This document shows, piece by piece, positions 2,245 to 60,031 of a stretch of 64,000 nt of DNA; the first letter of the stretch is position 1, and the number at the start of each line of letters is the position of its first letter. The notes beneath the pieces were generated by a model. The model did no database searches and was not told the DNA's origin. It worked only from the letters and a program-made list of their open reading frames with translations. Where the stretch lies: assembly GCA_951406725.2 (NCBI GenBank), contig OX597823.1, forward strand, positions 18,352,001-18,416,000. The letters are read 5' to 3'. The position numbers and the translations under genes are program-made. Source of the DNA: Octopus vulgaris. Its lineage: Eukaryota.

Positions 2245-2760
2245 TTTCTAGTGAGTCGAATGGCCTATCAGGGCCATTCCTTAATATTGTTGAATGCATA
2301 TAATATAGTCTGCGACTATTTTTTTCTTTCTCACTAGACCACTGGTGGCGGAAAATTTTTCTTGAATTTTTTGCTACCCTTATATTGTTTAATTAATGAT
2401 TTTTTGGCTAATTTTGAAATTGTATCCGCAGTTTATATTTGCTGCTGAGAAGACGGCGCGGTGACGGTGGATTTTGAAAATTTAGAGTATCTAGACTCGA
2501 GGCTTCGCTGCTGTCGCCTCGTGGATATATACTTTCCTTGGCTTCTTTGCTGATGAGACAGGCCAGTTGTAAATAGATTTAATTTAATTGAATTGAATTG
2601 GTTTACCTAAGTGTGTTGAAACTATGCATAGTCCAAAGATGAAAAGGATAAATGTTTTTATTTTGCCTTTAGTTTCAGAATTACAACTATTTAGTGGTTT
2701 GAGTTTGGCTGCTCTTTCTAGTGAGTCGAATGGCCTATCAGGGCCATTCCTTAATATTGT
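2245..2760 (+). mobile_element. Terminally redundant hammerhead-bearing unit (retrozyme-like or Penelope pLTR-derived)
   Basis: Identical 46-bp direct repeats at 2245-2290 and 2715-2760 (period 470), central hammerhead, (TA)n on both sides. Confidence 0.65.
2544..2639 (+). ncRNA. Type I hammerhead ribozyme motif, intact core
   Basis: Stem I TCTTTG/CAAAGA; CTGATGA (2550-2556); stem II GACA...TGTT with a long loop; GAAA; palindromic stem III ACTATGCATAGT; cleavage triplet GTC (predicted cut after 2633). Confidence 0.85.
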
Positions 2761-3374
2761 AGAATATATATATATATATATATATATATCATCATCATCA
2801 TCATCATTTAACATCTGTTTTCCACACTGGCATGGGTTGGTTAGTTTGACAGGGGCTGACCAGCTGAAGACCTACCCAGGCACTAACTGTCTGTCCTGGC
2901 ATCGTTTTTAGGGCTGGATGCCCTTCCTAGTGACAGCATTGAGTGCTTTCACGCAGCACCATCACAACTGCATTTATGTAGCACCGGTATGGGTCCTTTT
3001 TATGTGGCACTGGTACCCACAAGCCCACAAGGTTAGAAATTCTCAACTGGAAAAGGGACATGGGAACAGTTTGTATCTAAGGACAACTATGCTTTTACTG
3101 AGCATGATGTGTCTTGTATATATCTATGCATGTGTGTATGTTTGTCCCCCCATCACCGCTTGACATAAATTTGTGTTTTAGCCTAAGAGACCAACAGAAT
3201 AAGTACTAGGCTTAAGAAATCAGTCCTAGGGTCGATTTGTTCAACTAAAATCCTTCAAGGTGGTGCTCCAGTATGGCCGCAGTCAAATAACTGAAACAAG
3301 AATAAAAGATTAAAGAATAATGTTGTCCCAGATGCCCTTACGTCTGAAAATAAAATAAGTTGCACATGGTTAGA

Positions 3375-3824
3375 ACAGCTGAAGATGATGTCTCCTGGGG
3401 CTAACTTACAGCAACATTCGTCCTAAACCAGGAGTGCCATGTTATGTTGGCAAAAATCTTTACTCCAAAGTACTGTTGCTGAATATCTCTCATTGTGAGA
3501 TTTAAAAATCGTAATTTTCTAATTTATAAATCAGTGCCTAGTTGTCACTTTGAAGACAATATATTTTGAACAGGAATTTGGCAGCGCCACCTCCAGTTGA
3601 ACAATTATTCTGTGATGATGAAGGGAAATAACCCAGAAATCGCGATACACAGATATTGTTTTGAGCTGAGTGGGGCTGCTAGATTCCCTTGTTCGAAAAT
3701 ATAAGGACACAGATCATGTCATATAGCCAGTTGGAGACGATGTCTGTCTCCTGGGGCTAAATTGCAGCAACATTCGTCCTAAACCAGGACTGCCATGTTA
3801 TTTTGGAAAACAATCTTTACTCCA
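3375..3824 (+). mobile_element. Second terminally redundant hammerhead-bearing unit (period about 350 bp)
   Basis: Diverged direct repeats of about 95 bp (about 3375-3466 and 3727-3824; shared GTCTCCTGGGGCTAA, CAGCAACATTCGTCCTAAACCAGGA, TGCCATGTTAT, AATCTTTACTCCA) around the motif at 3609-3653. Confidence 0.55.
3609..3653 (+). ncRNA. Minimal type I hammerhead motif with a C3->A core change (probably inactive)
   Basis: TCTGTG ATGATGA AGGG aaataa CCCA GAAA TCGCGA TA CACAGA: 6-bp stem I and palindromic stem III. Confidence 0.65.
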
Positions 3825-4415
3825 TGGTTAGAACGCTTTTAATTATAAGTTTGCCTGACTGGAACTGACCTGGAGTTAAACAACAATAGGGTATCCGAGT
3901 GGAAACAGAATAAACTGTGGTGGTAAACCAGAAAAAGTGAATGATAAGGACAGGGATAACAGTTTGATTGGTTTGATTATTGGTATTTGAAACAGTTATG
4001 CTTGATGAACATGGATCAAAACTTGGAGTAGATGATGAATCGATGTTGATTTTATATATCATGTGATGTGATCATGTGACCAAACAGACTATCAGATGTT
4101 GTTACACACTGCTGGTCACAATGCACTTTGCATTATTTTAGCCTTCAAATGAAGCCACCCTGCTGGCTAGACCAGCAGGAAAACATTGATGGACAGGGAG
4201 GCTGGGGCAGTATGAAATGAAATGTTTTGCTCAAGAACACAATGCACCATCCAGTCTGGGGATTGAACCCACAATCTAGTGATCATGAATGCAACAGCCT
4301 AACCACCAGGCTGTGCACATTCACACACACACACATATCATTATATTTATATATATATATATATATATATATATATATATATATATAATGTTATTATTTT
4401 GGTGAAGTCAGTTTC

Positions 4416-56700: not shown

Positions 56701-57744
56701 AAACAATCACATCATTGAAACCCAAAAGCTATGAGATAACACATTATTAATTCAAAACAATTTGAATAAAAAAAAAGTATTATATTTAACAGTAATCTGA
56801 ATAATGAAGGATTAAATTGTTTAATATTCATATTTTCTCTAAAATTTCTCTCTATCAATCTCCATGTAAAAATATGGGGAAGATCCCTATATTACACAAA
56901 CAAAAGTAAACAACCCACATTTAAATATAGTAAACATCTATTGTTATATACATGCCATATATATATCATCATTACCATTACCATATAGGTGTAGGAGTGG
57001 CTGTGTGGTAAGTAGCTTGCTTACGAACTACATGGTTCCGGGTTCAGTCCCACTGCACGGCACTTTGTGCAAGTGTCTTCCACTATAGCCTCAGGCCAAC
57101 CAAAGCCTTGTGAGTGAATTTGGTAGACAGAAACTGAAAGAAGCCCGTCGTGTGTGTGTGTGTGTGTGTGTTTGTGTGTCTGTGTTTGTCCCTCCAAATC
57201 GCTTGACAATTGATGCCCGTGTGTTTATGTACCCGTAACATAGCGGTTTGGCAAAAGAGACTGATAGAATAAGTACTAGGCTTTGGCATGCTTTCTACAT
57301 TTGGATGTCCTTCCTAATGCCTGCCACTTTACAAAGTGTACTGGGTGCTTTTTTGGGGGGAGGGTTATAGTGAGGTCATGAAGGAACTCACAAGTCAAGG
57401 GCCCTCAAATGAGTGGAGTATAATAATGAAAGATATGTAAAGTTGATAGGGGAGCAGGGATAGATGTCTTGCTGAAGAGGAGGTTCATGGTTTCCCCAGC
57501 TAGAAAGCAGTGTGAGGGTGGGTGAGAGAGAGGGAGAGATGGTGACAAAATAACTTCAAGGTACAAGGTGAATAAAAGCAAGAGAATTGGGAAAAAGGGG
57601 ACAGAATGGATGGGTGGTAGGTAGGTAAATTTGCAAAAGTGTGAAAGGAGTGCAACTGATGATGAGAGATGGAGACTGAGGTGGGCACAACAAATATCAG
57701 TTTGGGGAAGGAGAAGGAAATGGGAGCAGGTTAGGAAAGGACAG

Positions 57745-58127
57745 TATGTATGTATGTATGTATGTGTGTGTGTATATATGTATGTATGTATGTATGTATG
57801 TATGTGTGTGTGTGTGTATGTATGTGTGTGTGTATGTATGTATGTATGTATGTATGTATGTGTGTGTGTATATGTATGTATGTATGTATGTATGTGTATG
57901 TGTGTATGTATGTGTGTATGTATGTATGTATGTATGTGTGTGTATGTATGTATGTATGTATATGTATGTATGTGTGTGTGTATGTATGTATGTATGTATG
58001 TATGTATGTGTGTGTATGTATGTGTGTGTATGTGTGTGTGTGTATGTGTGTGTATGTATGTATGTATGTATTTATGTAAGTATTGTAAGTATGTATGTAT
58101 GTATCATGTATGTCTGTATGTATGTAT
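57745..58127. repeat. (TATG)n/(TG)n compound microsatellite
   Basis: Read directly from the sequence. Confidence 0.95.
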
Positions 58128-60031
58128 AGGTAAGGGATAAGAATATCCGTTCTTACTACCGTTATTATTTAGCTATGCTATCCCTGGGCATGGGTATGCA
58201 GGCAACACTATGCTCATAGGTTATAGGTAAAAAAACTAAATAAATAAAAGTTTATCAGGAATCAAATTTAAAATAAGCAGAAAAGGGAGAAAACTTTATT
58301 TATATATATATATATATATATATATATAAAATATATATATATATCCTTGTTTTTTCTGTGTACCTTTCTGTAGAAGAGCGTAGGCTCAAAATGTAAAAGA
58401 CTTTTTCTATTCCTGAGCACTATACTAATACATCTGGTTTTTGTTTTGTACACCACCTGTTTTCAGTCTTTTGTTTATTTTCGTAAACTATTCCTTTATA
58501 TATATATATATTTATATATATATATATATATATATAAATATATATATATATATCATCATTTAACGTCCGCTTTCCATGCTAGCATGGGTTGGATTATATA
58601 TATATATATATATATATATATATATATATATATATATATAACGTACATAGCATAAAGAATTCTCTTGTGCCAGTGTCCTGACTTGCAAATTGAATAGACC
58701 ATGTGCTCAGAGCCTGAGACAAAAGGAGTGTTTTAAGAACTTGCTTAGACCCATGACTCCAGAGCAAGAAACTATTAGCAGCTCAAATGTTTATATTGTG
58801 TACATTAAATGATATTTATCTCTCACTGGATGGAATGTGTGCGTGCATGTGTGAGCATGCGTGTGTGTGTGTGATATTTTAAATGGTTACAGATTTTTCT
58901 AGGGCTTGATGCTCTTCCTGTAGCCAATCCTAATCTGTTTCTAGGTAAGGTTACATTATTTCCCTATGACTCCACACACTTCCATGGAAAATTGATGGAT
59001 GCCACTTGCAAGATGGTGACACTTGTTTATAACTATTATGTAATGTCAAGGCAAGGGAGTCAGGCACATTTACCCCCAATGGACAGACAATAACACACAC
59101 CCCACAAGAACAATTACCCCTGAGGACAACACATGATGATTTAATACTTCTTAATATATTGGAGAGGGAGTAATTAACCAAGTGGGTTAATTATCCTGAT
59201 ACAAGGCAAGGCGACAGTAACACACACACGTGTGTGTGTGTGTGTGTGTGTGTATAAGTATGTATATACTTTTCTACTTTAAGTACAAGGCCTGAAATTT
59301 GGGGGGAGGGGGCCAGTCGATTAGATTGACCTCAGTATGCAACTGGTACTTAATTTATCGACCCCAAAAGGATGAAAAGCAAAGTTGACCTTGGCGGAAT
59401 TTGTACTCAGAACATAAGGACAGATGAAATACCACTAAGCCAGCTCACCGCCCTGTATATATATATATATATATATATGGATTGGTTAAAATTCGAAAAA
59501 TTAAACTACGTTAAACAAACGAATTGAAAATTTATCAAAAAAGCCAAGTGAAAATAATGTTTTCTTTTGACACATTCTACCAGTATACGAAGTTTTAAAG
59601 TGTTTAGTTAACTAGAAATTGTGTTGAAATCTGGCTATCAAAAGGAAAAGATCCATATATATATATGTATATATGTATATATACACACACACATTACATA
59701 TCATGGGCTTCTTTCTGTTTCTGTCTACAAAATCCACTCACAAACCTTTGGTCACCCTGGAGCTATAGAAGACACTTGCCCAAGGTGTCATGCAACGGAA
59801 CTGAACCCAAAACCATATGATTAGGAAACAAATTTCTTTTGATCACCAACCATATCTGAACCTGTGTGTGTATGTGTGTGTATGTGTAACAGAAAGAAAA
59901 ATCTTTGAGAGGAAATTTTGCAAAACATGACATCTTGTCTATCCTATTTCTCAAAGCTCTCAAGCACAAACACTTACACACACACACACACACATCTATA
60001 CCTATCCCCCTACTGCCCTTTCATGCCCACA

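Follow-up and report, generated by a model that had tools for sequence, protein, structure and literature searches.

Hammerhead ribozyme motifs in the introns of an Octopus vulgaris gene, probable remnants of Penelope-like elements and of short non-coding derivatives

The introns of one gene in a 64-kb stretch of Octopus vulgaris DNA (the window, taken at its full 64,000 nt) hold about eight real hammerhead ribozyme motifs, which are probably leftover ends of Penelope-like elements (PLEs) and short non-coding passengers, a known kind of sequence that occurs here at high density. In the reading that we favor, with a probability of roughly 0.8, the hammerheads lay near the 3' ends of PLEs and persist in 5'-truncated remnants of several families, together with non-autonomous derivatives resembling non-LTR retrozymes (families A and C). 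Terminal redundancy, one target-site duplication (TSD), an inversion and TA adjacency on the 3' side support the retroelement origin, with 3' ends adjoining (TA)n, that was proposed in the first-pass annotation. The host gene (2..62667, minus strand; exons 62667-62482, 52100-51951, 51285-51052, 19813-19634, 7254-7102, and 367-2) encodes two Ig domains, with a MyRIP/melanophilin-like C-terminus in relatives, and all motifs are intronic.

No coding capacity for such elements was found. Among 233 stop-free fragments of at least 45 aa from non-repeat DNA, none matched reverse transcriptase (RT) or GIY-YIG in Pfam, and therefore no element here is classed as an autonomous PLE. Regular expressions for PLE motifs gave nothing convincing in the window, so that, together with the 233 negative fragments, no family is linked to a PLE ORF here. 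The same fragments matched the Ig exons of the host gene and, weakly, Kazal, Fer4, DUF3069, and Serendipity; these weak matches were treated as chance, the Kazal stretch lying outside the mapped exons.

Several traits are nonetheless of the PLE type, namely partial tandems or pLTRs (the redundancies 2245/2715 and 3389/3745), a tail, and an inverted 5'-truncated copy, inverted truncated copies and tails being PLE hallmarks (Craig et al. 2021, PMC8557442; this and the other published comparisons below concern the consulted parts of the sources). The inversion is a head-to-head pair of 98-nt 5'-truncated copies, 99% alike (18874..19095), with its left arm ending at (TA)11; each copy bears a hammerhead 3' half (18926-18938, minus strand; 19031-19043, plus strand).

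Short non-coding units of families A and C

Family A is a 470-nt non-coding unit with about 50 nt of terminal redundancy (2245..2763, plus strand; GC 36%), resembling a retrozyme monomer and flanked by a short TA tract on one side and (TA)13 on the other; positions 2245-2302 match 2715-2772 at 95%. Its intact type I hammerhead (2544..2639, plus strand, antisense to the host gene) has a 6-bp stem I, a long extended stem II hairpin and a 12-nt palindromic stem III, with a predicted cut after C2633. A 17-nt motif is present at 2279-2295 and 2377-2393 (2279..2393, plus strand), with a third copy at 2749-2765; behind it, element copies pass into (TA)n, and it is a candidate 3'-end or priming signal. 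Loose contig ends in run X13, only tentatively an RNA run, fall behind 2292 (one contig) and behind 2393 (three contigs); a search for runs listed no RNA-type carrier.

This was the sole family compared with contigs, in 4 of 21 sequencing runs and at a likeness of at least 80%. The whole unit is covered by 979, 360, and 759 contigs in three DNA-type runs from three organisms and is multi-copy in all three; the large population inferred earlier is supported in this one family, which is high-copy. Among the 40 variants listed, of 98 in all, six fall in the ribozyme, none at invariant core bases and none in the palindrome. Variant 2554 is N7, 2558 and 2636 yield G.U pairs, and 2617 T>C, at position 11.1, brings back the G10.1-C11.1 pair and reaches 66-84% in the DNA-type runs; 2602 T>A disrupts a distal pair. 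Position 10.2 and stem I are among the variable sites listed. One contig in one run contains a joint from 2753 to 2322 with 37 letters between, giving a 469-nt unit head-to-tail. Loose ends behind 2753 carry on into the 5' part of the unit, which together with the joint fits arrays or permuted monomers, and opposite-strand joints occur among the contigs as well.

Family C lies outside TA (3365..3834, plus strand) and comprises a 356-nt non-coding unit of 39% GC with about 90 nt of terminal redundancy (3389-3467 equals 3745-3824), flanked by a 12-bp TSD (3365-3376 and 3823-3834). Its decayed hammerhead (3609..3653, plus strand), recovered by graded score and by a one-mismatch scan, has C3>A, a mispaired stem II base, a 6-bp stem I, and an 8-nt palindrome.

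Families A and C are thus both short, low in GC, non-coding and strongly self-paired, with a type I hammerhead, as are non-LTR retrozymes, which carry a single such ribozyme and derive from PLEs (Cervera & de la Pena 2020, PMC7229834; Li, Clavereau & Pollet 2026, 10.64898/2026.07.22.740005). Solo monomers, and a large TSD as in family C, also agree with these sources, the second of which describes retrozyme monomers as common and PLE-derived. Unlike retrozyme arrays, the copies here span 1.1-1.25 units, with no dimer in the window, and the canonical 4-bp stem II is missing from the 96-nt hammerhead of family A; the consulted parts of the two retrozyme papers do not describe (TA)n targeting either. 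In mussel retrozymes, most canonical loop 1-loop 2 tertiary contacts are missing.

All motifs, families A and C included, might instead be truncated pLTRs of autonomous PLEs, with no separate retrozyme cycle and no circle. Partial tandems of PLEs likewise yield direct repeats, tails, and inversions (PMC8557442), PLE hammerheads mostly occur as single truncated motifs (PMC4209133), and for the Hydra-type and minimal motifs below this explanation probably holds. As an account of the whole set we consider it unlikely, though worth keeping in view. The 470-nt family A unit is covered in its entirety and closes on itself, only 1-4% of its contigs in the three DNA-type runs continuing into unlike sequence. 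Furthermore, circular folds of both families lie far below those of shuffled sequence (family A, z -4.3 on the plus strand vs -2.0 on the other; family C, z -5.0 and -4.0), which is partly due to the ribozyme hairpins themselves.

Hydra-type and minimal motifs

A Hydra-type pattern derived from a published hammerhead table (PMC8557442 supplement) has three matches in the window against 0.32 expected, and one of 100 shuffles reaches three. The first (4415..4462, minus strand, sense in an intron) has an unpaired T/T at the stem II base, a 4-bp stem III with a 1-nt centre, and G12>A, with (TA)n 26 nt away at its 3' end. The second is a 5'-truncated end (20059..20120, minus strand) that retains only the hammerhead 3' half (20095-20108) and lies between two TA tracts, TA being 38 nt from 20095. 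The third (25299..25349, minus strand), absent from the first-pass annotation, is a decayed hammerhead with A9>G and weaker support, a degenerate TA tract lying about 100 nt away. Judged by their sequences, all three fit the published Hydra-clade hammerhead, which is of type I, with an unpaired nucleotide in either strand at the stem II base, a 4-bp stem III with a 0-2 nt centre, and a place near the 3' end (PMC8557442). Stem III of 4416 and 20095 is identical to that of Penelope-3_HM, and the 20095 half differs from Hydra-2_aMil by one base through stem I (PMC8557442). A preference for (TA)n is reported for nearly all Hydra-clade families, including Hydra-1 of Octopus bimaculoides (Hydra-1_Obim; Craig et al. 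2021, PMC8557442).

Unlike Hydra-clade PLEs, the window holds no Hydra ORF (an RT with RWK and DKT motifs and no CCHH), nor is there an ORF remnant upstream of the Hydra-type ends. The published Hydra-1_Obim hammerhead does not occur in the window, and none of six window motifs was found in the consulted supplement text of PMC8557442, where FASTA line breaks could mask a match. Three further cases are perhaps also Hydra-type. One has a perfect core (6231..6294, plus strand), a 6-bp stem I, a 5-bp stem III with a 2-nt centre, and (TA)n 135 nt away; its imperfect stem II caused scans demanding that stem to miss it. The second (18665..18705, plus strand) is doubtful as a whole, with three changes in its 5' core and no stem I; its 3' half (18688-18701) fits the Hydra-type pattern, and the whole form was recovered by no scan of the window. 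The third is family B, although families A and B differ from Hydra-clade hammerheads in having perfect palindromes and a far longer stem II, 55-61 nt separating the core halves.

Two motifs fit, on sequence, the minimal hammerheads of metazoan PLEs, in which an extra base between 9 and 10.1, a G10.1-C11.1 pair, and a minimal stem III recur (Cervera & De la Pena 2014, PMC4209133). The motif at 30177..30222 (plus strand) has the extra nucleotide after A9, G10.1-C11.1, and G12>A, and lies 48 nt from (ATA)22 rather than from TA. The plausible one at 58364..58399 (plus strand; A6>U, G12>A), within a 152-nt insert between TA arrays, scores at chance level and shares the defects of 30177 at G12 and 15.2. 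The published minimal hammerheads likewise come in many families within a genome, for the most part as lone truncated motifs, and are presumed to cleave as dimers. These two depart from them in that both lack G12, and the consulted parts of that paper report no tie to TA or ATA repeats (PMC4209133). Scanning metagenomes for the families of 58364 and 30177 returned no loci for either.

Hammerhead-bearing SINEs have already been described, and some of the motifs might belong to pol III SINE-like elements moved by a LINE, as in schistosomes, and not to PLE partners. By eye, an inverted tRNA-derived head with A-box- and B-box-like segments lies at about 29985-30053 (minus strand), across (ATA)22 from 30177. 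This origin is improbable, since that head is on the strand opposite 30177, the other motifs have no such head, ARAGORN found no tRNA genes and Rfam no tRNA at that place.

The intact family B pair

Two intact hammerheads on the minus strand, both sense in an intron, make up family B. The one at 28581..28661 has a 12-bp stem II and an 8-nt palindrome, and TA arrays flank its 217-nt insert (28536-28752); the other (40767..40846) lies within an insert of 375 nt (40553-40927) that has long TA arrays on either side. They align at 68% over 283 nt, TA flanks included. Of 38 cells in the paired positions, 36 are paired, and five of 19 pairs have changed on both sides, such pairs being absent from slid controls; this covariation is drawn from two sequences and a structure derived from them, and was matched by 17 of 500 column shuffles. 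A scan of viral contigs with a loose family B pattern gave seven loci, which were dropped, blastn showing none similar to the window.

The two are intact members of one family on the sense strand of the gene and lie 12 kb apart within one 31-kb intron, so that the host could conceivably have retained them as a heterodimer that cleaves the pre-mRNA and thereby adjusts expression. Their palindromes are able to cross-pair, and palindromes in the window form self-duplexes at -7.0 to -15.9 kcal/mol vs +0.4 to +2.4 for monomer hairpins. The heteroduplex is weak, however, at -3.0 kcal/mol vs -7.0 and -10.3 for the homodimers, the active monomer folds are 4-6 kcal/mol less stable than the minimum-free-energy ones, and the remaining perfect-core motifs (2544, 6231) are antisense to the gene. 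As divergent copies with intact cores are expected if family B subfamilies diverged while active, host use is highly improbable.

Motif frequency, TA tracts and a proposed cycle

All 12 stretches reported in the first-pass annotation are present where and on the strands on which it placed them, and the type I architecture with a self-complementary stem III is real. The comparison with dinucleotide shuffles that it called for, done within the window, finds intact motifs far commoner than in shuffled sequence. Under a strict descriptor of type I, which asks for a perfect core and at least 3 bp in each of stems I and II, the two strands of the 64 kb yield three matches (2544, plus; 28581 and 40767, minus); 20 local dinucleotide shuffles average 0.15, and the reversed sequence gives none. 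A second descriptor, whose settings were picked after the motifs and the published Hydra table had been seen, does not demand stem II and takes stem III arms of at least 4 bp with a 0-2 nt centre. With a perfect core, it adds 6231 (plus strand), giving four matches against none in 100 shuffles. These four, previously called intact or near-intact, have perfect CUGANGA, GAAA, and U16.1-H17 cores, and three helices with ends joined in stem I, along with covariation, were found, stem II being imperfect in 6231. Allowing one core mismatch and requiring at least 4 bp in stem I, six motifs match (2544, 3609, 6231, 28581, 4416, and 25299-25349, minus), vs a mean of 0.35 and a maximum of 2 in 60 shuffles. 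A graded score of at least 9 is reached by six (2544, 40767, 30177, 4416, 28581, and 3609), vs 0.12 in 40 shuffles. The single core defects of 3609, 4416, 25299 (minus), and 30177 notwithstanding, these four are above chance as a group.

Lower scores separate poorly from background: 58364 reaches 6.6, 13449 reaches 6.3, and 25299 reaches 5.9, where shuffles give 2.6 matches of at least 6 and the reversed control five of at least 6.7. The match at 36787 (score 8.2) is a microsatellite artefact, and the motif at 13449..13493 (minus strand), a 5' core and hairpin with weak stems I and III, is doubtful. Three-prime halves alone (GAA and palindromic arms) number 11, vs 4.9+-2.3 in 200 shuffles; because three of the 200 also reach 11, single halves are not provable one by one. 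Of the "at least ten" motifs claimed previously, seven of the ten full ones are thus supported, 58364, 13450, and 18665 being at chance level or unrecovered, and 25299 had been missed; the families are several, as claimed, not all unrelated, since 28581 and 40767 form one family and 4416 and 20095 have their 3' half in common. Rfam gave no hammerhead family among 150 of 277 matches listed for the window, nor at 2450-2760 or 29960-30300, possibly because a long stem II and a short stem III deviate from its models. Its scans of the window returned miRNA matches that were microsatellite-driven.

The least probable account of all is that AT-rich DNA, prone to hairpins and rich in microsatellites, produced most of the motifs by chance. 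In its favor are 13450, 58364, 18665, the single 3' halves, the 23 relaxed matches per shuffle (score of at least 3), the artefact at 8.2, and the lack of a hammerhead among the listed Rfam matches. The four perfect cores against none in 100 shuffles rule it out for those four, and family B covariation and the permissive positions of the listed family A variants argue against it.

A (TA)6+ tract lies within 220 nt 3' of four of the six best-scoring motifs vs a 14% background (P=0.005), with a threshold fixed after looking. The motifs had been described as mostly lodged in TA microsatellites, which applies to these four and to 6231, near (TA)n, and not to 3609, 30177, or 13450.

For the retroelement origin that we favor, we infer a model in which transcription, cleavage, dimers, circles, and the identity of the partner enzyme are all conjectural parts. 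The ribozyme would cut a tandem or read-through transcript, motifs with 8-nt palindromes acting as dimers and family A possibly also as a monomer. An RT/GIY-YIG protein provided in trans would nick (TA)n, prime at the RNA 3' end and copy the unit-length RNA, which may be circular. An early stop in copying would leave truncated or inverted ends, copying beyond one unit would create terminal redundancy, and most copies would afterwards decay in introns. The role of PLE hammerheads and the priming and mobilisation of retrozymes are described as open questions (PMC8557442; 10.64898/2026.07.22.740005).

The novelty implied by the first-pass annotation does not stand, as published work already covers PLE-terminal hammerheads, non-LTR retrozyme monomers, and the (TA)n preference of the Hydra clade, one octopus family among them; the kind of element is described. 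Literature searches found no cephalopod non-LTR retrozyme family. Penelope-like families appear in an octopus repeat annotation of 2026, whose main text does not contain the words "ribozyme" or "hammerhead"; the families found here may already stand in Repbase or Dfam libraries or in the supplements of that paper or of the 2026 preprint.

More tentatively, family A might be a circular-RNA retroelement so far undescribed, one that carries a target mimic of its own and a long-stem-II hammerhead able to cut as a monomer. The repeated 17-nt signal and the AT-rich tract after it would then let a TA-nicking PLE enzyme prime reverse transcription at two fixed points of the circle; were the window typical, there would be 17-160 perfect-core hammerheads per Mb, above densities from published counts. 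Such a target mimic, if real, would account for the way in which retrozymes exploit PLEs and are directed to (TA)n. Hammerhead motifs could aid in classing "unknown" repeats, and the many families, the TA-anchored 3' ends, and the young high-copy 470-nt unit provide material with which (TA)n priming and monomer vs dimer cleavage can be tested.

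Hammerhead motifs against shuffled and reversed controls

The first-pass annotation had proposed at least ten hammerhead motifs, mostly lodged in TA microsatellites, and all 12 stretches that it listed, isolated 3' halves included, are present at their positions. A strict type I descriptor applied to both strands of the window found three motifs (2544 (+), 28581 (-) and 40767 (-)), whereas 20 local dinucleotide shuffles averaged 0.15 and the reversed window had none. A graded score of at least 9 was reached by these three and by 30177, 4416 and 3609, against 0.12 in 40 shuffles. 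At a score of at least 6 there were nine matches versus 2.6 in shuffles, and the reversed control gave five matches of 6.7-8.1, so that 58364 (6.6) and 13449 (6.3) are inseparable from chance. A further graded-score match at 36787 was discarded as a microsatellite artefact. An intermediate version of the scan returned five matches, each scoring at least 8.9, versus 0.1 at 8 or above in 30 shuffles.

A descriptor free of stem II (stem III of 4-6 bp, centre of 0-2 nt), devised post hoc in the light of the motifs and of the published Hydra table, found four perfect cores, newly including 6231, against none in 100 shuffles. With one mismatch allowed it found six, against 0.35 in 60 shuffles, and recovered a decayed Hydra-type hammerhead at 25299-25349 (-) that had been missed before. 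None of the scans of the window recovered 18665 as a complete motif. The scans and their controls thus uphold seven of the ten full motifs, add one and leave 58364, 13450 and 18665 unproven. The 3' halves alone (the GAA and palindromic arm, without the 5' core) number 11 versus 4.9 in shuffles; that of the doubtful 18665 motif (18691-18708) is nearly duplicated over 18 nt at 18552-18569, 139 nt upstream.

The TA association holds in part. A tract of (TA)6 or longer lies within 220 nt of the 3' side in four of the six best motifs, versus a background of 14% (P = 0.005, with a threshold chosen post hoc), but none lies so near 3609, 30177 or 13450.

Anatomy of the elements and their remnants

The anatomy of the elements is directly visible. 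The element at 2245-2763 (family A) is built of a 470-nt unit, about 50 nt of which recur at the two ends, and is flanked by TA tracts. In its hammerhead, 96 nt long, stem II carries an extended hairpin and the 12-nt palindrome can close into 4 bp and a tetraloop; the active monomer is just 1.3 kcal/mol above the minimum free energy (MFE). Compared with 40 shuffles, the circular fold of the unit is lower in energy by 4.3 SD on the ribozyme strand and by 2.0 SD on the opposite strand. The element at 3365-3834 (family C) consists of a 356-nt unit plus about 90 nt of terminal redundancy, lies outside TA and is flanked by a perfect 12-bp target-site duplication; its circle fold has a z of -5.0 (other strand, -4.0), and C3 is lost in its hammerhead. 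Neither unit structure had been described in the first-pass annotation.

Parts of family A are present in 21 public runs from five organisms, and contigs were compared with the unit in four of them (979, 360, 759 and 40 contigs). Each of the three DNA-type runs among these covered the unit in every one of its 29 bins. Among the 40 of 98 variants listed, six lie in the hammerhead: T>C at N7, T>C at 11.1 (which restores G-C), two that produce G.U, one at an unpaired base and one that disrupts a distal pair. These leave the invariant core bases and the palindrome untouched. In a single contig, 2753 is joined back to 2322 across 37 intervening letters, which makes a unit of 469 nt, and runs X1 and X4 each have 18-20 loose ends behind 2753 that continue into the 5' part of the unit. 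The unit is therefore joined end to end with itself, either in arrays or in permuted copies. An attached ORF is disfavoured, since just 1-4% of contigs from the three DNA-type runs pass into unlike sequence. With the majority letters at 2297 and 2302, the junction becomes an 11-nt TA-like tract, and at this position the window copy runs into (TA)13. Copies of a 17-nt motif lie at 2279, 2377 and 2749, and in run X13 TA repeats are entered behind 2292 (one contig) and behind 2393 (three contigs), a thin hint of fixed priming points.

The 28581 and 40767 copies (family B) are alignable across their entire TA-bounded inserts. Of 38 cells in a 19-pair structure, 36 are paired, and five pairs are altered on both sides (four in the 12-bp stem II, one at the palindrome centre), in a comparison of only two sequences, from which the structure itself was drawn; no double-changed pairs arise when the structure is slid, and 17 of 500 column shuffles equal the observation. 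Self-pairing of the 8-nt palindromes is worth -7.0 and -10.3 kcal/mol, against +2.4 kcal/mol for the monomer hairpin, and the active monomer fold is 4-6 kcal/mol higher than the MFE. The host is unlikely to make use of the two sense-strand copies, because their heteroduplex reaches only -3.0 kcal/mol. Family B has the dimer-type architecture known from metazoan hammerheads (PMC4209133, PMC6765202). Hammerhead-like candidate cores in viral contigs (L002:501-558, L003/L006:501-563) carry an 8-nt stem III palindrome identical to that of 28581; by blastn these contigs are unrelated to the window.

The motifs at 4416, 20095 and 25299 match the hammerhead table of Hydra-clade Penelope-like retroelements (PLEs) in the PMC8557442 supplement, in the unpaired base on each side of the stem II foot and the 4-bp stem III centred on a single base. 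A pattern derived from that table has three matches in the window versus 0.32 expected. (TA)n is the insertion target of nearly all Hydra families, one of which was described from Octopus bimaculoides (PMC8557442); the published hammerhead of that family was not found in the window. Minimal-hammerhead features, as described in PMC4209133, occur at 30177 and 58364, and the two changes common to both look like CpG decay. A tRNA-like head at 29985-30053 (-), in which visual inspection suggests A-box- and B-box-like stretches, is separated by (ATA)22 from the 30177 hammerhead, has the opposite orientation and was called by neither ARAGORN nor Rfam. At 18874-19095, 98-nt truncated copies form a head-to-head pair with one 3' half in each, the left copy ending at (TA)11, which is the inversion pattern drawn for PLEs in PMC8557442.

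Host gene and presumed partner enzyme

The whole window lies inside a single minus-strand gene, 62667-2 (-), so every motif is intronic. Six exons were mapped at 90-100% identity to the protein P0002, which carries two Ig domains, and introns reach 31 kb; a relative, P0003, has a MyRIP/melanophilin C-terminal domain. Microsatellites make up 16% of the window, and 31% has a second copy within it; its SINEs resemble those of octopus. Other features are a minisatellite at 23147-24823 (36-bp period, 46.6 copies, 93% matches), two-copy tandem duplications at 36159-36519 and 21620-22043 (periods 181 and 220 bp), a MITE-like imperfect inverted repeat of about 150 nt at 19194-19346 with a TA array on either side, and a full-length weak U6 snRNA match at 18162-18266 (+) (34.7 bits, gathering score 44), possibly a pseudogene or chance.

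No RT or GIY-YIG domain was detected in 233 stop-free fragments of at least 45 aa from non-repeat DNA of the window, and the 600 nt preceding ten of the motifs showed no RT/endonuclease motifs on inspection. Relatives were found neither in metagenomes (58364 and 30177 families) nor in viral collections (family B pattern). With a probability of roughly 80%, the ribozyme would cut tandem or read-through transcripts, and a PLE RT/endonuclease acting in trans would nick (TA)n, prime at the RNA 3' end and copy the RNA; copying would truncate or over-run one unit, and inserted copies would then decay. Cleavage, circles and the partner are presumed by analogy with systems in PMC4209133, PMC7229834 and 10.64898/2026.07.22.740005, the last of which derives animal retrozymes from PLEs and reports cleavage in only one of nine dimers tested.

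Density and novelty

Four perfect cores in 64 kb correspond to 62 per Mb (95% Poisson 17-160), a value biased upward because the window was chosen for hammerheads. Acropora has roughly 13 per Mb, given its genome size. PMC7229834 gives more than 6,000 hammerheads for Acropora and, together with 10.64898/2026.07.22.740005, 120,000 in 28 Gb (about 4 per Mb) for axolotl. No published description of these particular families was found in the hammerhead and retrozyme literature on octopus, cephalopods, Penelope and microsatellites, a coverage mostly outside subscription papers and repeat databases. This kind of element is already known, and the window families are newly found members of it.
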